64,000 bases of DNA from Vicugna vicugna (taxonomy: Eukaryota). The translations under genes were made by a program, and so were the position numbers. Of the stretch, positions 5,358 through 63,095 are shown piece by piece; the first letter of the stretch is position 1, and every line of letters begins with the position of its first letter. Location of the stretch: positions 11,175 through 75,174 of the forward strand of contig MU058035.1 of NCBI GenBank assembly GCA_013265495.1. The letters run 5' to 3'. Under the pieces are notes generated by a model that was not told the origin of the DNA, searched no databases, and was given only the letters and a program-made list of their open reading frames with translations.

Positions 5358-6860
5358 CTTTTTTTATTGTGTAAAATATACACATATAACATTCACCACT
5401 GTAAACAATTTTAAGTGTACAATTCAGTGGCATTGAGTACATTCACAGGGTTGTACAAACATCACGACTGTCTATTTCCAGCTTTTTTTTCTTCCTAAAC
5501 AGAAACTCTGTACCCATTAAGCAGTCACTTCCCATTCCCTGCCCCTACACAGCCCCCAACCCCTGGCAACCTCTGTTTTACTCTCTGTAAGAATTTGCCT
5601 ATTCTAGATACCTCATATAAATAGAATCATACACTATTGGTCCTTTGACTTATTTCATTTAGCATAATGTTTTCAAGGTTCATCCACGTTATGGCATGTT
5701 ATCAAAACTTCGTTTCTTTCTATGGCTGAATAATATTCTGTTATATGCATAAACCACATTTTGTTTGTTTGTTCATCTGTTGTTGGACACTTGGGTCATT
5801 TCTACCTTTTGGCTCTTGTGAATAATACTGCTGTTAACATTGATTACAAGTATTTGAGTCTTTGTTTTCAATTCTTTGGGGGTATATACCTAGGAGTGGA
5901 ATTACTGAGTCATATGGTAATTCTATATGTAATTTTTAAAGGAACTTCCAGAATGTTTTCCACTGCAGCTGCACCATTTTACATTCTCACAAGCAATGTA
6001 TGAGGGTTCTAATTTCTCCATATCCTCACCAATACTTGGAATTTATTTTGTTTTTGTTTTTAAATAATAGCCATCCTAGTAGGTGTGAAGTAGTATCTCA
6101 CTGCAGTTTTAGTTTGCATTTCCCCAGTAACTAATGATATTGAGCAGTTTTTCATGTGCCATTTGTATAGCTTCTTTGAAGATATATCTATTCAAGTCCT
6201 TTGCCCATTTTTAAATTGAATAGTCTTTTTGTTGTTGTAGGAGCTCTTTGTATATACTGGATATTAATCCTTTAATCTGATACATGATTTGCAAATATTT
6301 TCTCCCATTCTGTGGGTTGTCTTTTCACTTTCCTGGTAGTGTCCTTTGGTGCAAAAAAAAGTTTCAAATTTTGATGAAGTTCAGTTTATCTGTTTTTTTG
6401 TTGTTTTCTTGTTGTTTCCTGCACTTTTGGTGTCCTGTGTAAGAAACCATTGTAAAATCCAAGGTCATGAAGGTTTCCACCTGTGTTTTGTAGTTTTAAC
6501 TCTTAAATTTGAGTCTTTAATCCATTTTGAGTCAGTTTTTGTATGTGGTACCATGTAAGGGTCCAAATGCATTCTTTACCTTTGGCCATCTAAGTTTCCC
6601 CACGCCCTTTGTTGAAAAGACTGTCCTCTCTCCATTGAATGACCTTTGCACCCTTGTTGTAAACCAGTTCACCACAGATTTGAAAGTTTATTTCTGGACT
6701 CTCTATTTGATCCCATTTGATCCTTATGTCAGAACCACTCTGCTTTGATGACTGTAGCTTTGTATTAAGTTTTGAAACAGGGAAGGGTGAGTCCTTCAGC
6801 TTTGTTCTTTCTCAAGATTAACTACCTGAGATCCCTTGAAATTCCATATAAATTTGCCAG
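5358..6860 (-). mobile_element. Old L1 (L1MA/L1MB-like) 3' fragment, antisense to ARID5B
   Basis: Reverse L1 3' end 'ttttaagtgtacaattcagtggcattgagtacattcac' and ORF2-end signatures 'tatacctaggagtggaattactgagtcatatggtaattcta' and 'tttgcaaatattttctcccattctgtgggttgtcttttcac'. Confidence 0.92.
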
Positions 6861-6861
6861 A

Positions 6862-7612
6862 TGTTCCCATCACACCCTCTAGGATGACCTTTAAAAAGAC
6901 AAACAGTAACAAGTGTTAGCCACAATGTGGAGATATCAGAACCCTCAAACACTACTGGAGAGAGCCATGTTGGAAAACAGTCTGGCAGTTCCTCAAAAGG
7001 TCAAACACAGAATTACCGTATGACCCAGCAAGTCCACTCCTGGGTATTTACACAAAAGAAATGAAAACATGTATCCATGTGAAAACTTTTACACAAATGT
7101 TGATAGCAGCAGTATCCATAATAGCCAAAAAGTGGAAACAACCCAAATGTCTCATCACCTGGTGAAATGGATAAATAAAATGTGGTATAACCATACAATG
7201 GAATATTATTCAGCAATAAAAGGAAATGCAATACTAATACCCTCTATAGTATGTAATGACCTTGAAAACATTAAGCTAAGTGAGAGAAGCCTGTCACAAA
7301 GAGCCACATATTGTATGATTCCATTTGTGTTAACTGTCCAGAATAGGCAAATCTATAGAGACAGAAAGGAGATGAGTGGTTTCCTAGAACTGATGAGGGG
7401 CAAAGAGGTGTGGGAGTGTGAGGGTTCAGTGTTTCTTTTGGGATAATGACAGTGTTCTAAATTTGATTATAGTGATGGATACATAATTTTGTGAATATAC
7501 TAAAAGCTTGTACATTTTAAATGGATGAATTATAATTTAATAATTCATCCATAAATGAATTAAATGGATGAATTATTCTGGTATGTGTATTATGTTTCAG
7601 TAATGCTATTAA
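6862..7612 (+). mobile_element. Old L1 (L1MB/L1MC-like) 3' fragment, sense orientation
   Basis: 'cagaattaccgtatgacccagcaagtccactcctgggtattta' and 'gaatattattcagcaataaaaggaaatg'. ORF 7069-7446 contains the L1 ORF2 C-terminal remnant WINKMWYNHTMEYYSAIK. Confidence 0.92.
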
Positions 7613-10800: not shown

Positions 10801-13039
10801 ATAGATTATAGTGGTTTTCAGTGAGCATAATAGTGTGATGTTTCCGAAACAAGCCTTCCCTCCTCCCCCGAGGATGAAAAAGAAAGTTACATTTCTAAAT
10901 TGTTGTGTAAGAGATAAAAGCAAATTTCTCCTCCGGAATTTATGTTTTCAGCCTTCTGTGCATTTGGCCACCATTATCTATTTTAAAAAATAGCATTATG
11001 GATATTTGAAAGTCAATGCTCCATTAATTCATTGTGTTTGCTATTTCATGCATCTCTCGTTTTACAAAGACAACTTGAGCAACGTGCTATTCAGAATGAA
11101 TGCCTGCTCTTACCCTCTCCTCCCACCCCTTCCCCACCCCCAGCTCAACGCTAAGGATTAAAGCAATGGTGTACAGTTACTGTTTGAAAAGCTTGGGTGG
11201 AGTCTCACGTTATAATTACAGTTTCTTAGTGGAATTTTTGTTTTGGACTTTGAGAATATATAAATAAGTGAAAAATTGACATGAGAGAGGTTAACAAAAC
11301 GTGTAATTATGATACAAGCACAGGATTAGAGTAATTTTGGTTGAGCATTACAACCAGTGTACTTTAGGTATTAACTTTTAATAAGCAAAGTTCTTTTCAT
11401 TGAAGTTGAAATGAGGTTTAGTAATTTGAGGGGGGGGTCTCTTATTCCCTCTGAATATTTCATTTTAAAATCAGCACATTGACTTTTTTTTTTTTTTTTG
11501 GTGGAGGGGTTACTTGAGAAATGGGAGATGACATTTTAATAGAATATCATGATGATGGTTTGAAATTTCAGTCTTTGGTATCAGCAATTTATTGCTGACC
11601 ATTTTCTGTGACAGAGATCAAAGTAATGTATATATAACCCAACCAACTACAACCCATTGGAGTGTGTTAGAGAAAGATTCCTTAGAGTTGTACTTTGATT
11701 TCTTTTCCTATATGGGTGTGGTTGAAAGAAAATCTTTGTTTCAGGAACACTTTGTTTGTCTTTTGTTAAACAAATGTGTGATTTATCCACTCCTTTATTC
11801 ATTCTTAGATTTATCTGCTAGACCTATTATGAATTGGAAAAGGGGAGGTGTCCTACACAGCATTTATTGTCTCCCTTGTTTCATGTGTAACTTTGCATAG
11901 GAGTGTTTGTTTATGTGTATATGAAATGCATAGGAGGAAAGAAGTAGCTGAGGAATTTAAATAAGAATTCCTGAAAGGGTTGTTTGGCTTTATTTGTTTC
12001 TTAGTGTACTAGGGCAAAATAAAATATGACGGCTGTTGAACAAGTTCATACTTTTGTAGCTGTTTCAGGAAGAAGTTAATTTAATGCAGAGGCTTAGGAG
12101 GAAGTTACAGGATCATAGAATTTTAGATCTGGAAAGTGCTTCCAAACTCATAATTTTGTACTCTGTCATACAGACCTTTTATGTTCAGGTGACTACACTT
12201 TGCCTTGAGAAAAAAATGTTTCTCCAGTTTAATAAACTTCTCTCTAAACTCCAAAGAAGCGACCCAGAGTATGTTCACTCAGTGCAACTTTGACCTAGAC
12301 GAATTGTTGATTCTTCCCACTCTCACCTTGACTGTGGATCTTCTCTTCACTCTCACCTAGTGTGCTTTGTTAACCTTTTCACAGGAGTCCTGGGGTCTCG
12401 TGGGCTTTCTCTGCTTTTTGTAAATAGTAAAACTGCTCCTCTGGGAATATCTCATTGTCAGGTTGGAAATTTGCCTCTGTCCAAACAGTGCCAAAATTCT
12501 GGTCCAAATGGATGGTTCTGTTCATAGTTAACAAAGTTATGGAGTTTTTTTGGCATCCCTAAGCACTGCCATATTAGAGCAGGTCCCAGCTGGCATCTAA
12601 CCTCTTAGTGAGGGTCAGGGTTCTACACTTGCACAAACTGGAGTTGACTTTATTTCTTATCACATGGGTAGGAGGTAGAAAGTTGATATACATGAAATGT
12701 GTGTCAATAATTTTAAAGCATTACAATGGGAATTACAGTCTTCTGGAATAAGAACATTCTAACTTAACCAGAGTCAAAGAATTCTGGCTTATAATTGGCT
12801 GAATTCTACGGTTCTCAATGAAACAGATGTCTCGTATTTTCCTTGATCAATGGCCACCATCCTCATTCCTAATATTGTAAATCAGTTTAAGCTCTAAAAC
12901 AACAGTAATATTTCCTTTGACATATTATTATTTTATTTCAACCACAGCCACATAGGAGAGGTAATCAAAGTATTAATTACCCCAAGAAGTATTATTATTA
13001 TTATTATTATTATGTGACATTTTGTAAAAATGAAAAGCT

Positions 13040-13375: not shown

Positions 13376-13412
<37 letters not shown>

Positions 13413-13414
13413 TT

Positions 13415-13445
<31 letters not shown>

Positions 13446-13451
13446 GGTTTT

Positions 13452-13500
<49 letters not shown>
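13376..13500. repeat. 125-nt poly(T) tract (119 T, interrupted by a, a, gg, gg)
   Basis: Read directly; non-T bases at 13411, 13416, 13446-13447 and 13452-13453. Confidence 0.98.
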
Positions 13501-16511: not shown

Positions 16512-16742
16512 GGGAGGACGAGGAAGAAACAAACGTGATAGTTCTCAGCTATCCTCAGTACTGCCGGTACCGCTCGATGCTGAAACGCATCCAGGATAAG
16601 CCGTCTTCCATTCTAACGGACCAGTTTGCATTAGCCCTGGGGGGCATTGCAGTGGTCAGCAAGAACCCTCAGATCCTGTACTGTCGGGACACCTTTGACC
16701 ACCCAACCCTAATAGAAAATGAGAGCATATGTGATGAGTTCG
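16512..16742 (+). CDS. ARID5B: ARID5B internal coding exon (exon 4 in human numbering), 231 nt, phase 1 at both ends; encodes (G)EDEEETNVIVLSYPQYCRYRSMLKRIQDKPSSILTDQFALALGGIAVVSKNPQILYCRDTFDHPTLIENESICDEF
   Basis: Peptide recognised as the ARID5B N-terminal region. Acceptor ttttctcgtttgtctAG ends at 16511; donor is G|GTGAGT at 16743. It joins in frame with the exon at 62983 (TTC G|CG CCA = F-A-P). Confidence 0.97.
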
Positions 16743-24325: not shown

Positions 24326-27241
24326 TCAGCTTGGACATCGCTCAGAAAGATCTTTCAGACTTCCAGAGATCATCAGGCTGACAGGAAACAGATAACTGAC
24401 CACCAGGTCTTTAGATAATGAATGTAAAATAAGTTTTGTAGGATATAGAGATTGGAGTGTGTTGCATTGGTTAAGAAAGAGAATGGTCATAAAGATTCAA
24501 AAGCTGCAAATCACTGGATAAGGATGAATACACTCTGATGCCAGCCCCTGTCTTCTCTGGTCTGTGATACACCGTCTCCCTGCTTCAGCCCTTGCTGTCC
24601 TTTGGTCTCTTTTCAATACACCAACCAGAGTGATCACTTCCCTGCTCAAGTCTCCTGTTGGCTTATCTCATCTCATCTCATCAGAGAAGCAGATGTGAGC
24701 ATAGAGTCCTTTAAGGGTTGGGGCTACTTAGAAGTTGAAGGAGTCGGTAATAATCTGCCCTGTGTTCTCCTGGATTCTTTTTAAGACATGGGATTGCTAT
24801 GCTGACAGGACTTTCATTATACACCTCTCTGTAATTTTCTGCTTAGAATGCACTGGCTTTCCCAACTTGGCATCCTTTTTTTTAAATGAAAAAATTATAG
24901 GTCTAATTTCAAGAAATGAAATGTATGCAAGCTTTTCTGCTTTTGTCACTTCTTTATTCCTGTAGCACATAAATCATTTCCCTTTTTAAAATTAAATTTC
25001 GCTTGCCATGATTTGGTAATGGGTTTTCAAAGGAGGCAGAGTAGCCAAGCTCTCAGCTCAAGAGCCAGCTGTGCTGCCTGCTCAGGAAATCTCATTGCTG
25101 GCTGGCCTGGGCCTTGATCCCATCATCTGGGCTTTATGCTCCCTTTGGAAGTTGCCTAGAAATTCTCTCCTTAAGACTTGCCTCTCTGAACGGCCTTTTT
25201 AGCTCTCCAGGTGCCATCTTGGTGTGCTACAGAACATGAGACTTGGGCAGAAAAAGATTGGTGTGTTCGAATGCTTATTGGGTGCTTATTCATTCATTGA
25301 GACTGGCTCTAAGTCAGAGCTCCAGGCATTGTTGGGATCTTGGTCTCTGTTCTCAAGACACTTAAAAATCAAGTTGGTTGAGATAAGACTTGGAGCAGTG
25401 GTCACTACCAATATTATCTGTGATCCTTTTAACAATCTCGCCTTTGACCTGTGAGCAATCTTATGGTCACCCAGTTACCGCAGGGTCACGGACCAAGCAC
25501 GCTGCTGAAATTAGAGTGAGCACCTTCCTCGCCCAGTCTGCTGACCCCTGTGGATGGTCACACTTTTCTACCACAAAGTGAGAGGAGCATAGAGCTAATA
25601 GCCTGGAGTTATCCTGAAGTTCAAAAGAGACGATATCTGCCAAGCTTTGTAAGTGGGAAAGCCACATAATGGACACTGCAGGGCAGTCTGCAAAGGGCTA
25701 ACTGAGGAGGTCAAACTCTAGGGGCCACTGAAGATAAAGGATGCATGAAAGAGGGCCCGGATGTCAGGGGAGGCCTCTTAGAGGAAGTGGAGCTTCAACT
25801 GGACCTTGAGGGATTCAAAAAGGAGGAAGTTATTTCAGGTGATGAGGTGGAACTACTCTGGACTTTGAAAGCTCAAAGAAAGAGGTTTTTTCCTTTGCCA
25901 CTTTTAGCTTTCAGCGTAGACAGAAAAACAGCCTCCACAAGCAAAACCCTTTTTCTCTTCCTAGAAGATGTCACCTTCTCCTGAGGCAACATGTGGTCCT
26001 GAGTCTTTCTCTCACAGGCCCCATTGTGGTTAGGACCCAGAGGAAGCATCTTGGAGGAAAAATCAACTTGTCTCTTATTAAATTAGAAATGTTCCCATGG
26101 GCCTATAAGAAAGAAAAGGAAAGAGGCACCAACTTCACAGTAGGGAGTAAAGGATGAGATCCCTGCTTGATTTCTTGGCTGTTTAAAGGGCTACTTCTAG
26201 GCTGAAAGAGTAGCTTCAGAATTATCACCTTGGACCCTTTGCTCTTCTCCCCTCTGTGTTACTCAGTGCTTTTCCAGAGTTATTTTTTTTTCCTTCTGCT
26301 TGATATTAAAGTTAACAACTTCAATTGCATTTCTCTCCACTAGATTCTAAGCTCCTATGGGGGTAAGAATCATGCCTTACTCATCTTTGTATCAACATAT
26401 GTTTGTTGAAATGATATAAAAACTCCACTAGATTCCAGAGGGCTTCAGATCTCCATCATCTTGTTGCCTTTCTTAAAGTCAGATATTTCTTGACATCAAT
26501 CTTTAAGTTTTTGTTCATTGCCAGTTGGTTTAATTCTCAGAAGAAGGTGTCTAGCTCAGAGGAGCCAGGTTTCTCTCAAAGTTTACTTACCTTTTCAGAC
26601 TAGAGGAATGTCCTTCACTAATTGGTCAGTGTCTCTGGCTGAAGACTGTGCATCTGTTATGATGCTTAACAGGCCCCGGAGTCTGCACAACCTAGGGTGC
26701 TCTTTCTGAGGAAGGCAAGGGGCATCCTTAAAATAGGGCAGATGGTAGCCTGTATCCAGAAGTCAGTGCATCCACCTTTTCCGCCTCTAACCCACAGGTA
26801 TCAAAGTTCATTGTGGAAATCAAGGAACCAGTGGTGGGGCTATTAGCATACAGGACGTTGGCAAGTTCTAATTAAGCTCTGTGGCTCTGGAACATATACA
26901 GTACAGCTAGGTCACAGTTCAGGCCGGAGACTTATCAGAAGTGCTGGGAAAGAAAAGGCCTAGCCAGTATAACGTTCATTACTAGGAAGATCACTTGGTG
27001 AATGGCACTTACGCCCCAAGGATACTTCGTGGGTCGGTGGCTTCCTCTGTGTTGTCTGTGGGTGGGGATGAGGTCTTCTGTCTCCCAGGAGAGTTCCATA
27101 GAGGATCCTGGTTGAGGCACTTGCACCGCACTCAGGGTTTAGCAGGTCACATATTTTTCTTCACAGTCCCAGACATGAACGTTAGGTCTTTAAAAACAGG
27201 AGATAAAATATTTTAACAAAGATATCCCATGCAGTGTCAGA

Positions 27242-27339
27242 AACTATACTCTAGCAGGGCACTGACCACTGCCCCATCCCCAGCACACGTGCTTTCAGAA
27301 GGGATGGGGCAGTGGTCAGTGCCCTGCTAGAGTATAGTT
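27242..27339. repeat. Perfect inverted repeat with 39-bp arms (27242-27280 and 27301-27339) and a 20-nt spacer
   Basis: aactatactctagcagggcactgaccactgccccatccc is the exact reverse complement of gggatggggcagtggtcagtgccctgctagagtatagtt (checked base by base). Confidence 0.98.
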
Positions 27340-28079
27340 GCTGGTTCTTTTGAGGTTTGTTTTTATTGTAGCACAGATGACAGGTCTGCTGCTCTGGAGA
27401 GCACATTCTATCCCATAGCTCTTGAAAGAAAGGAAGCCGATGTGTGTCAGGACTTGAACAAACAGGGACTATTCAAGCCCTCTTTGAATTGGCTTGCTGA
27501 TCCTTGGTGCCAAGGTCATCTGCTCGAGCTGAGGAGGTGGCCTTAGAGAAATGCCGAGTGTGGTCTCACCCCTGCCAACCCTGGTAAGTGCTCACTCCAT
27601 CCTCGGCCCAGCCATCCACACCTTGTGAGAGGAGTGTCCTTCACATGGAAGAGTGTTCCTCAGACTTCTCAAAGGACTTCGATGCCTTACCTCTGAACAA
27701 CTCTGTGTAACCAAGGGGACAGGTGTCACTGGCCCCATTGGGCAGTTGAATTGATCAAGACAGTCAGTGGCTAAACATTAGTGCAGTGGCAGGACCTCAG
27801 TGGGACTTGGGCATGAGTTTCTCACCCTGTGCCTGTAATGCTCCCCCATGGCTGTGTGACCCAGTGCTGAAGGGTCACACACACATACAGCTGTGAGATT
27901 AGATGTAGCAAACCCCAATAACCAGAACCTTCAGTTAACCAGATGCTTCCCATCCCTCATGCCCTTTGTACAATATTTCAAGAAGGAAAAAAAAAGTAAA
28001 TAGTAAAAAACAGCTTATATTTTTGAAAATATTTTTCTCATTATGAAATTATTTCCATTTTGAAAAGTACAAGTATATT

Positions 28080-43585: not shown

Positions 43586-43949
43586 TAATCATCCCTCAGT
43601 ACCCATGGGGGTTTGGTTCCAGGACTCTCTCTGATACCAAAATCCAGAGATGCTCAAGCCCCCAGTATAAAATGGTGTAGTATTTGCACATAACCTTTGC
43701 GTCACACATATACTTTAAATCATCTCTAGATTACTTATAATGCCTAATACAATGTAAATGCTATGTAAATAGCTGTGAATATGATGTGAATGTTATGTAA
43801 ATAGTTGCTGGCAGTTGGCAAATTCAAGTTTTCTTTTTTGGAATTTTCTGGATTTTTTTTTTTTTTTTGATCTGATGGATTTTTTTTTTTTTTTTTGATC
43901 TGTGGTGAATCCAAGGATGCAGAAGCACGCGGATAGGGAGGGCCGACTA
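43586..43949. mobile_element. MER2(B)-like Tc1/mariner-Tigger MITE with TA target-site duplication, nested in a MIR (about 43410-44030)
   Basis: Termini 'taatcatccctcagtacccatggggg' and 'ggatagggagggccgacta', flanked by TA (43584-43585 and 43950-43951). Internal 'tactttaaatcatctctagattacttataatgcctaatacaatgtaaatgctatgtaaatag'. The MIR core stops before the element and resumes as 'tgaggattaagtg...agcacagtgcctggcata'. Confidence 0.9.
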
Positions 43950-60520: not shown

Positions 60521-61019
60521 ATACCTGAAAATATCAGTGTTCTTGCCTTCTTAGGAACAAAAGGCTCTTTCTCTTGATCAAATGCCATTTAGAGTTTTAA
60601 GATTGTGTGATCAGAATATTAGGTGCTAGTCTGTTCTAAATTTGTAATTCTCAGAATTTGCTGGGGAAGGGCATGTGCCTCGCTGGGTTCTGAAAACAGC
60701 TCAAAGAATGGAGAAAATAGACCCGATTTGAGGATGACTTACTGTCAGTTCCTGGAACCTTTGCCTTTATTTAAAACAGCCTGTTCAGTGCAAGTTCTCT
60801 CTATCTGAAAGGCCTTTGGGATTTGAAAGCTTTTCTGGAAATAAATGCCTTTTAGGTTTAAATGCTTTTTTGCCAAAATGTTAGGAAGGAAAGATCAGAC
60901 TAACAAGTCTTAGAACAGAGGCGATATTGTTTTGTTTTCTTTAATGAAATGCCTCAGACCTAGCCCAAGTTCTGTTTGTTTCTGTCAGCTTTGTGCTCGG
61001 CTATTATTTTGATAAGGGA

Positions 61020-61440
61020 CATGAAAGGGCAGCCTTCCCGCCCTCATTAAGGTCTTAGCACTTAGGTCAGTTGTGGAAACACTTCTGTGCTACACCAAGT
61101 CTTCAAACCAAAATAGTCCCCGCCCTGGCTCCAGGCAGAGGACCCTGTCAGTTCATGGAAGGTGGCATCAGGCTCTGACAGAGGAGCAGGAGGTCAGGAT
61201 CCAAAAACTGGCCAGATGAAATCACCAAGCCCGCACGGGGAGGTGGAGGGAGCCGAGCCCTCCCTGCCAGTCTGGCAGCTCCAGCCAAGTCCTCAGAGCT
61301 CATCCCACACACCCCGTGCTAGTCACTGCTGTGTGTTTACATGAGTAATGGAGCTGCTGGGGGAGGGGAGTTGTAAGCAGAGCGCTGCGCCTCGCAGCAG
61401 CTCTTGTTCGTTCGCATTCAGAGGGAAGCTGACGTCCACA
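61020..61440 (+). promoter_or_regulatory. ARID5B: Putative internal promoter of the short ARID5B isoform
   Basis: Locally GC/CpG-enriched and free of recognisable repeats. GC-box-like cccgccc near 61037 and 61118, ggggaggggag at about 61360-61370 and CRE-like TGACGTC at 61430-61436, directly upstream of an ATG-G|GT donor. The TSS cannot be fixed from sequence. Confidence 0.7.
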
Positions 61441-61540
61441 CCAAGTCAAGGCGAGCCCTCCAGGGACGTGGCCGGGAAGCAGTCACATGCTGTAGCTTTC
61501 ATGAGCACAGACAGCATCAGGCAGATGTTTGTCGACTGGA

Positions 61541-61544
61541 ATGG
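61541..61544 (+). CDS. ARID5B: Coding end of the alternative first exon of short ARID5B (ATG + G), spliced to exon 5 to give M-APNLKGRPRKKK...
   Basis: ggaATGG|GTAATC: strong Kozak context (G at -3, G at +4) and a phase-1 donor matching the phase-1 acceptor at 62983. Consistent with my recollection of a mammalian short isoform lacking about 243 N-terminal residues. Confidence 0.8.
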
Positions 61545-62982
61545 GTAATCGCTGCTTTTTCTTTGCTTGATTTTTTGTTTGTGAGTTTGTTTACCTTTGA
61601 TAATTCCAGGCTGGCTTTCTTAGATGGACTTTCAGACAAACGTTTTTTGGGAAGTAAGGGGAAAGCGGGTTTGGGAAGGAGGAGTCTGAACCCCAAAGCC
61701 ACTTTTTCTCAACTTTTGCCCGATTGTAAAGGCAGCTCTGTTTTACTGCATTTTGTCAACAGCAAAACTGTTATCCACAGTAGAAAATCAGATTAGTGGG
61801 ATTAATTGTGTTTATAAAATGGGTAAAATGTAAAATATCCTAAAACCACTAGTTAACTGCGTGACATAAGTGAGATTAACAACAATTAAGAGGGTTTGAG
61901 TTGTTCAGATTTTGGATGGTTATAATCATACCTTAAAGTAATAAAACGTGTGGGTACCTTGAAAGGTCCCCTAGTGAAATTGCTTAGGTTGTAATTCATT
62001 AGTCTGGAATTCTTCAAAGGCTATTCGGTTAGTTGGTTTGTTTTAATTTTGCTTGACTTGGGTGACTGATGGAGTTAAATGTGAAAGCTGATGCCGGACA
62101 GTCGTAGCACTCAATAAACAGCAGCCTTTTTTTTTTTTCTCTCCTGCTTTCTGTATGGATATTAAAAGGATTCAAGCTCAGCATCCAAGATGAAATATAA
62201 CTTTCATTTGCGTCTTGTCTCTGGCTTTTAAAAAGTGTAATCTCCAAGGAATCAGCCTAACTCCAATTCAGTGTGATCTTTGGAAGTTATTTTAAATAAA
62301 CCTCGAGATCTCCATAAAAGATATATATTGAAAAGGAAAGAAAAGCATGCTGACTTAAATGTGTCTGCCAAATTTGCTGAGATTTGAAACATGCTGGTTG
62401 TAATACTATTAGTAAATACATGTTTTCAGATTGTTACCGTGAATTTCTCTCTGTATAGTTTTCTTCTTACTTATTTGTATGATAATTTGGGGAAATGCTC
62501 ATGTCTCAACTTTTAAAGAGAGATGTTTTGAAACGTTACATCATAGTGATACCATAATGGCCTGGCATATAACTTAGGTTTCTGAAAACAAAAAGATACA
62601 AACCAAAAAACAAAGAATGATCTCAGAGCCTGGCTCTGGGCTGTCTTTCAGCCCAAAGTATTTCTTTTCTAACAATAGAGAAGTGCATTTCCCTTATCCT
62701 CATCCTTTAAAGCTAAAAGCTTTATTTATTTCTTCATGTTATTCATTCTAATTAGACACGTTCTGTGTAATAGGTGAGCTTTGGGAAACACGTACAGAAG
62801 TGTAGAGTCTACTTAGATGCCACCCCTTCAGGGAGAGGGAAGCGTGGAAGGAGGCTTGGCTACACAGATATGTACATTTCTCTGAACAATTAGAGGGTGC
62901 CGCTGGAGTAAGATTTTTGCTTTTTAATAAGGAAACCCATGCAAATGAAAATGTATCTCATTTGTTCTTCATTTGTTTTCAG

Positions 62983-63095
62983 CGCCAAATCTTAAAGGCA
63001 GACCACGCAAAAAGAAACCGTGCCCACAGAGAAGAGATTCATTCAGTGGTGGTAAAGATCCCAACAACAATTCCGATGGCAAATCCGTTGCCAAG
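62983..63095 (+). CDS. ARID5B: ARID5B coding exon 5 (human numbering), 113 nt; encodes (A)PNLKGRPRKKKPCPQRRDSFSGGKDPNNNSDGKSVAK
   Basis: Acceptor tttgttcttcatttgttttcAG ends at 62982; donor is AAG|GTACAG at 63096. The peptide continues ARID5B after ...ICDEF and includes the basic GRPRKKK motif. Confidence 0.96.

Follow-up and report, generated by a model that had tools for sequence, protein, structure and literature searches.

Hairpins derived from MITEs are known, such as MADE1/mir-548 and those of the hAT MER families. Perfect inverted repeats can also be made by template switching, for which a four-point model has been described. According to one report, the event types 1-4-3-2 and 3-2-1-4, which make such repeats, represent 31% of the high-confidence human-chimp switch events (PMC5453318), and another gives the length copied in ape template switches as 12 (median) and 128 (maximum) (PMC7954356). 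Of the new hairpins found in human genic regions, 6,054 have stems of 30-55 bases, and 57 of these (0.9%) are in miRBase; among the intragenic cases of switch-born miRNAs, 81 of 99 are located in sense-strand introns (10.1101/2023.04.19.537475).

The hairpin analysed here lies in a camelid ARID5B intron. It is genuine and apparently single-copy, was probably born by a template switch, and is intact in some animals and decaying in another. So far, there is no sign that it has a function.

A perfect hairpin in an ARID5B intron

A direct scan for stems in the whole stretch of DNA analysed (64 kb, hereafter the window) returned the structure of the original prediction at every coordinate: the two arms pair at 39 of 39 positions, with zero mismatches, around a 20-nt loop that carries CACGTG at 27286-27291 (Table 1). 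It is the longest of the 48 perfect stems of at least 10 bp with loops of up to 100 nt in the window. The next-longest one, with a (TA)n microsatellite left out, has 14 bp, and the expected number of stems like that of the hairpin is about 1e-16 per window by chance. With the basal extension, in which 27238-27240 pair with 27341-27343, the stem reaches 43 bp and is 98% paired, with one mismatch. The arms are GC-rich, as had been noticed before (56%, vs about 40% across the window). None of the 13 TRF rows of the window overlaps the hairpin. The RNA fold of 27200-27380 has an energy of -95.8 kcal/mol (z = -11.75), and none of 200 shuffles was equally stable; in addition, the folding stability of the hairpin is about the same on the plus and minus strands, for RNA and DNA alike. 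CACGTG has nine copies in the window, and its chance is about 0.2% per 20-nt loop, as estimated post hoc. The hexamer TCAGAA, which was thought to sit at the start of both arms, does occur at 27237-27242 and 27295-27300, but its first copy shares one base with the left arm and is not separate from it.

Table 1. Coordinates of the hairpin, of its junction and variant features, and of the flanking exons
Feature	Position	Strand	Remarks
Left arm, 39 nt	27242..27280	+	39-nt collapsed unitig in X1, X5 and X7; unchanged in X15
Loop, 20 nt, with small internal 4-bp stem and CACGTG	27281..27300	+	80-nt unitig; no differences in 3/3 DNA runs
Right arm, exact reverse complement of left arm	27301..27339	+	X15: one G absent at 27306, 27313 = A
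Basal extension, 3 further pairs with 27341-27343 past one mismatch	27238..27241	+	candidate inverted microhomology
Hexamer TCAGAA, direct second copy at 27295-27300	27237..27242	+	candidate return-switch microhomology
Six bases at arm-loop junction, reverse complement of 27339-27344	27280..27285	+	possible hint of a second short switch (post hoc)
90-nt segment skipped in one X15 contig	27235..27324	+	2-nt homology; 40% of summed depth of both forms
Upstream ARID5B coding exon, residues about 168-244	16512..16742	+	donor site 10.5 kb before hairpin
Downstream ARID5B coding exon, residues about 245-282	62983..63095	+	

The location of the hairpin in an ARID5B intron was likewise borne out, by the two flanking exons, which together encode ARID5B residues 169-282. 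The peptide of the upstream exon gave 536 matches. Of the 120 listed, those with a name are ARID5B and the rest are unnamed hypothetical proteins, and the gene is therefore called ARID5B here. Searches of Pfam and PDB gave no match to the exon peptides, and ESM Atlas returned irrelevant look-alikes only. Over the 113 residues compared, alpaca P0123 and the Bos representative P0007 show no difference from the protein, and Camelus P0064 differs at one site. A self-BLAST of the window gave only two dispersed repeat pairs, whereas a ruminant or pig window is expected to carry many SINE copies. The animal is therefore probably a South American camelid. The hairpin lies on the sense strand of a 46-kb intron, which we take to be intron 4, at 10.5 kb from the donor site. 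Alpaca ARID5B isoform X2 (P0122, 943 aa) is without the peptide of the upstream exon. If this short isoform starts near 61000-63000, the hairpin would be present only in the pre-mRNA of the long isoform.

Several other features were observed in the window. An open fragment of an L1-type reverse transcriptase (Pfam RVT_1, E 4.6e-28) lies on the minus strand of 1-459; it runs off the window start, and its upper end is abrupt, as in a young L1 truncated at the 5' end. The old L1-like pieces 5593-6088 and 6870-7352 are oppositely oriented and 69% alike over 513 nt; in the pre-mRNA, they could possibly pair as a long and imperfect dsRNA. At 7521-7577, close to where an L1-like segment ends, a 13-14-nt AT-rich unit is arranged as direct, inverted and direct copies with perfect 13- and 14-bp stems; this looks like a second, smaller template-switch cluster, suggesting that such events recur in the window. 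A 43-nt inverted match with 86% identity is formed by 11691-11733 and 12930-12972, which are 1.2 kb apart. The 125-nt tract at 13376-13500 is 93% T, has no obvious adjoining retroelement body, and could be either a genuine expansion of a tail or an error in assembling a homopolymer. A 27-28-nt unit is repeated in tandem at 43829-43902 (2.4-2.7 copies, with T runs), presumably within a DNA-transposon end.

Intact, variant and skipped forms in sequencing runs

Among 24 sequencing runs, 14, with four organism labels, contain 0.92 of the 174 window words sampled, and no run exceeds this value. Judged by their descriptions, none of the 24 is a small-RNA library. Four runs were compared in detail, namely X1, X5 and X7, which are DNA, and X15, which is RNA by guess. 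The evidence consists of assembled contigs, some records having been filtered out, and the right flank is absent in all four runs, so extra copies of the arm could be hidden. In X1, X5 and X7, which come from three studies and carry three labels, the left contig stops at 27271, the arm is a 39-nt unitig and the loop an 80-nt unitig, with no differences within the hairpin. When the window was simulated at k=31, identical pieces resulted (39, 80, end at 27271), and a one-arm control gave a single unitig. Since all three DNA runs show the graph signature predicted by two perfect arms, the hairpin is not an assembly artefact. A single 147-nt contig of X15 also runs across both arms. The ratio of arm depth to flank depth is 2.5 in X1 and 1.9 in X5, as two copies predict. 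In X7, the arm has 0.58 and the loop 0.26 of the flank depth, which we read as hairpin dropout. One of these three runs may be the window's own source, but not all three. They all disagree with the window at 27057 and 27153, which are either private alleles or errors in the window's assembly. The two differences explain about half of the missing words, and the rest were not placed, the right flank being absent from the contigs. That an assembly or library artefact made the hairpin could be argued from the 0.92 that no run exceeds and from the use of contigs instead of raw or long reads; however, the predicted unitigs recur in DNA runs from three studies and X15 covers both arms in one contig, which leaves this account with a negligible probability.

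The 147-nt contig of X15, a run of organism E, differs from the window in the right arm, where the G at 27306 is missing and the T at 27313 is changed to A, and its left arm and loop are unchanged. The two changes bulge one base and break one pair without compensation, and the fold energy goes from -91.9 kcal/mol for the window form to -79.6 kcal/mol for the X15 form. Perfect pairing of the arms is therefore not universal. The runs of organism E contain 0.36-0.39 of the sampled words, which corresponds to about 97% identity if the whole stretch is covered, and partial cover by a closer animal is equally possible. Under neutrality, two or fewer differences in 148 nt have a probability of 0.81-0.18 at 1-3% divergence. 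At 3% pairwise divergence, one lineage keeps the 78 arm bases intact with a probability of 0.31 and another gains at least two changes with a probability of 0.33; the corresponding values at 1% are 0.68 and 0.06. Therefore, the perfection of the arms needs neither selection nor conversion, and the earlier argument that zero mismatches imply a recent origin, ongoing conversion or selection does not hold as a requirement. The X15 pattern fits neutral decay. An invariant left arm would also be expected from a conserved 5p guide or from later correction of an arm (n = 2 changes).

In addition, X15 contains a 58-nt contig that joins 27234 to 27325, with a depth of 9.4 vs 14.2 for the full form (one contig in one run), and the pair of 58- and 147-nt contigs is the prediction of a two-form bubble. 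Of the right arm, the AT-rich outer 15 nt (33% GC) remain in the skip form, and the GC-rich core, the inner 24 nt (71%), is lost. This geometry would result if an enzyme with the plus strand as its template opened part of the stem, came to a halt there and jumped. Hairpins have been documented to be skipped by reverse transcriptase, in the form of falsitrons and of dsRNA region-skipping, with a falsitron share of up to 70% of molecules and repeats of 3-16 nt in 35 of the 57 cases reported there (PMC8240250; PMC10628436). Splicing was rejected as the origin of the skip, as none of its three equivalent placements has GT-AG, GC-AG or AT-AC ends on either strand. The skip form is also unlikely to be the ancestor before insertion, which would need a palindromic insert from elsewhere together with a copy of the retained 15 nt. 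On balance, we lean towards an artefact of reverse transcriptase as the source of the skip form, and a genomic deletion allele is a serious possibility. Coexistence of a perfect, a decayed and a deleted allele without any role of a miRNA is doubtful.

Origin of the inverted repeat

A short-range template switch during replication is probably the origin of the hairpin, which is most likely neutral, and it is the best explanation of the locus, as the original prediction had proposed. The arms are perfect and non-repetitive, the loop is short and microhomologies are present at both ends. The locus also shows an inverted copy of at least 15 nt (39/39 pairs), a stem of the 30-55-base class with a central loop, and no simple repeat. 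We infer the switch, the arm that is new, the age of the event and its neutrality from the sequence as it stands today. The polymerase would have switched from its template to neighbouring sequence, of which it copied about 39-43 nt in the reverse direction, either on the nascent strand folded back on itself or on the opposite strand, before it switched back; a single event would have given a perfect inverted repeat. Since then, the hairpin would have stayed intact in the haplotype of the window and the three DNA runs and begun to decay in that of X15. The hairpin is presumably transcribed passively in the ARID5B pre-mRNA and may fold in cells to a very stable stem, which would block polymerases, with the depth dip and the 90-nt skip as possible outcomes, yet be a poor Microprocessor substrate.

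The proposed role of TCAGAA as the microhomology stands only in part: as a direct repeat, the hexamer cannot prime an inverting switch, and it is a possible microhomology at the return step only. Direct recurrence of a hexamer by chance is about 0.5% at a fixed site, again a post hoc figure. At the outer end, 4 of 5 bases form an inverted microhomology (27238-27242 vs 27339-27343). The direct hexamer and the loop-start hexamer mirroring 27339-27344, both noticed post hoc, together hint at serial switching or snap-back repair. The human genic span is near 1.5-2 Gb, so the human hairpins amount to about one per 300 kb; therefore, one per 64-kb window is unremarkable, though most would no longer be perfect. 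Against a template switch, the 39-nt copy is long for the class, given the median of 12 reported in apes (PMC7954356), and an old decayed element or hidden extra copies are possible.

A size of about 100 nt and perfect inverted ends are also what a young multi-copy MITE would have, with the arms as its terminal inverted repeats. However, no target-site duplication was found beside the 39-bp or the 43-bp arms, and the flanks differ. With up to 3 mismatches in 20 allowed, nothing in the window matches the arms except the two arms themselves; arm depth is about twice that of the flank or less, and none of the three DNA runs has another contig on the arms at 85% likeness or above, in a search that caught unrelated 33-38-nt matches elsewhere. 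When the arm decay of three putative old MITEs in the window was gauged, their arms aligned over 11-24 nt only, so the contrast drawn earlier with decayed MITE ends is a tentative one. The exact 24-nt arm pattern had 0 matches in metagenome contigs, where host DNA is scarce, so this result is uninformative. We consider a young multi-copy MITE very unlikely. The statement that the hairpin is not a recognisable repeat fits the one copy seen in the window and the run contigs and the lack of a target-site duplication; an old decayed element may yet be its source. Such an element, or an older switch product, might have been an imperfect inverted repeat that was re-perfected by arm-to-arm switching, with X15 as the uncorrected state. 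Conversion from near-perfect to perfect repeats has been reported in human and chimp (PMC5453318), and the two X15 differences are confined to one arm with 7 nt between them, which keeps the correction reading alive, since a single switch would erase both. The inner stem, 27255-27326, starts with CAG and ends with CTG, and we take these to resemble hAT-type ends; however, pairing continues beyond them and the outer ends lack an 8-bp target duplication. No template of at least 8 nt for the X15 changes was found within 26900-27700, and diverged copies were found neither in the window nor among the run contigs. Because correction needs the same two changes plus a switch as an extra event, decay is more parsimonious, and we regard a re-perfected repeat as unlikely.

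Alternatively, break repair by snap-back SD-MMEJ or by serial switching could have inserted a patchwork; in the strongest form of this proposal, the hexamer was joined directly to the right arm in the ancestor and all of 27243-27300 is new. The two junction hexamers, one direct and one inverted, and a mini-palindrome in the loop are consistent with it, and snap-back SD-MMEJ is described as using an inverted primer and microhomology repeats and as yielding new inverted repeats (PMC5728401). However, both hexamers were chosen after the fact, and about 9 nt of the loop are without a clear template. The left flank and the loop can be aligned with gaps, but this likeness was rejected, as 909 of 5000 random 30-mers matched or beat the score of the local alignment. 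Insertions made by snap-back SD-MMEJ are usually shorter. Break repair is therefore an improbable source of the hairpin, and a simple template switch is the reading that we prefer.

Candidate RNA function and comparison with known systems

The suggestion that the hairpin is a candidate miRNA, endo-siRNA or ADAR substrate came out as unlikely, though not refuted. In its favour, a sense-strand intron is the usual context of switch-born miRNAs, the stem falls within the 30-55-base class, and RNA-type runs contain part of the stretch. Moreover, a register with cuts at 27255 and 27328 puts a miR-34/449 seed, as given in PMC5363356, in the last 22 nt of the 3p arm. The match is a modest coincidence, because 38 candidate seeds were scanned, and in this register the Dicer cut is uncertain since the upper stem has 26 bp. 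Efficient pri-miRNAs are reported to have a 35±1-bp stem together with UG, UGU/GUG, CNNC and mismatched GHG motifs (PMC9856966), which enhance processing and are not strictly required. The stem of the ARID5B hairpin, in contrast, has 39-43 bp, and the motifs are nearly absent across the 19 plus-strand Drosha registers: basal UG is present in 1/19 (86-nt precursor), CNNC in 0/19 and apical UGU/GUG in 0/19, and the sole basal mismatch (27340) is not in a GHG. A search of Rfam over the window gave 0 matches at the gathering threshold and 18 below it, the best being mir-4716 at 55 of 76 bits. The sub-threshold miRNA matches were rejected as structure-only, since mir-4716 scores on either strand and only by virtue of pairing. 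The miR-34-like seed is broken by the X15 substitution, and the X15 contig shows no A-to-G change, in a setting where contigs drop minor variants, RNA status is guessed and matched DNA is lacking. Only 0.9% of the class is annotated as miRNA (10.1101/2023.04.19.537475). Taken together, it is most unlikely that selection has kept the hairpin as an intronic miRNA, siRNA or editing substrate, whether functional or proto-functional.

In the most specific version of this idea, the hairpin arose in a single step as a proto-miRNA of camelids; where the allele is perfect, it would be cut at about 27255/27328 to give a 3p RNA with the miR-34/449 seed, and the X15-type and 90-nt-deletion alleles would be losses of function. 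This version is extremely improbable. If it were true, ARID5B transcription would feed an extra miR-34-like repressor, and if the skip were also genomic, the alleles would show the birth and death of one miRNA gene. The literature search found no report on this locus or on an ARID5B intron microRNA in camel, no alpaca small-RNA study as judged by title, and no genome-wide count of perfect inverted repeats.

On the best reading, the hairpin adds one case, from outside primates and mice, to a documented kind of mutational product, and matters little in itself. Its importance would rise only if small-RNA data showed a processed product with the miR-34/449 seed. Its value is that of a test case, as public data show all three of its forms, perfect, decayed and skipped. 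There is also a practical warning: such a hairpin fragments k=31 assemblies and can lose about four-fold depth, and it may produce a false intron in cDNA.

MITE-derived hairpins resemble the ARID5B hairpin as intronic palindromes of about 80-110 nt. However, the latter has no target-site duplication, no other copies seen, GC-rich arms and no mir-548 match in Rfam. The falsitrons and dsRNA skipping described in PMC8240250 and PMC10628436 share with the X15 skip non-canonical ends, removal of a stable hairpin and a large share of molecules, but the X15 skip has a 2-nt repeat only and one end 15 nt inside the stem, and the RNA status of the run is guessed. Snap-back SD-MMEJ (PMC5728401) likewise gives a new inverted repeat with a short primer and microhomology repeats at the junctions, and in the present sequence such an insertion would look the same as a template switch. 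The intronic miRNAs hsa-mir-4713, hsa-mir-576 and mmu-mir-3086, born by template switching (10.1101/2023.04.19.537475), are similar in size and also lie in sense-strand introns; the ARID5B hairpin differs from them in having no known read stack, a stem that is too long, nearly absent motifs, a 20-nt loop and no Rfam membership. The hairpin also resembles the template-switch hairpins of the four-point model (PMC5453318; PMC7954356; 10.1101/2023.04.19.537475), which are likewise perfect, unique, intronic inverted repeats with a short spacer and a stem of the 30-55-base class, followed by later point changes in a related haplotype. We infer membership of the ARID5B hairpin in this class without a parent-child comparison, and its copy is longer than the typical one (median 12 nt in the ape report).
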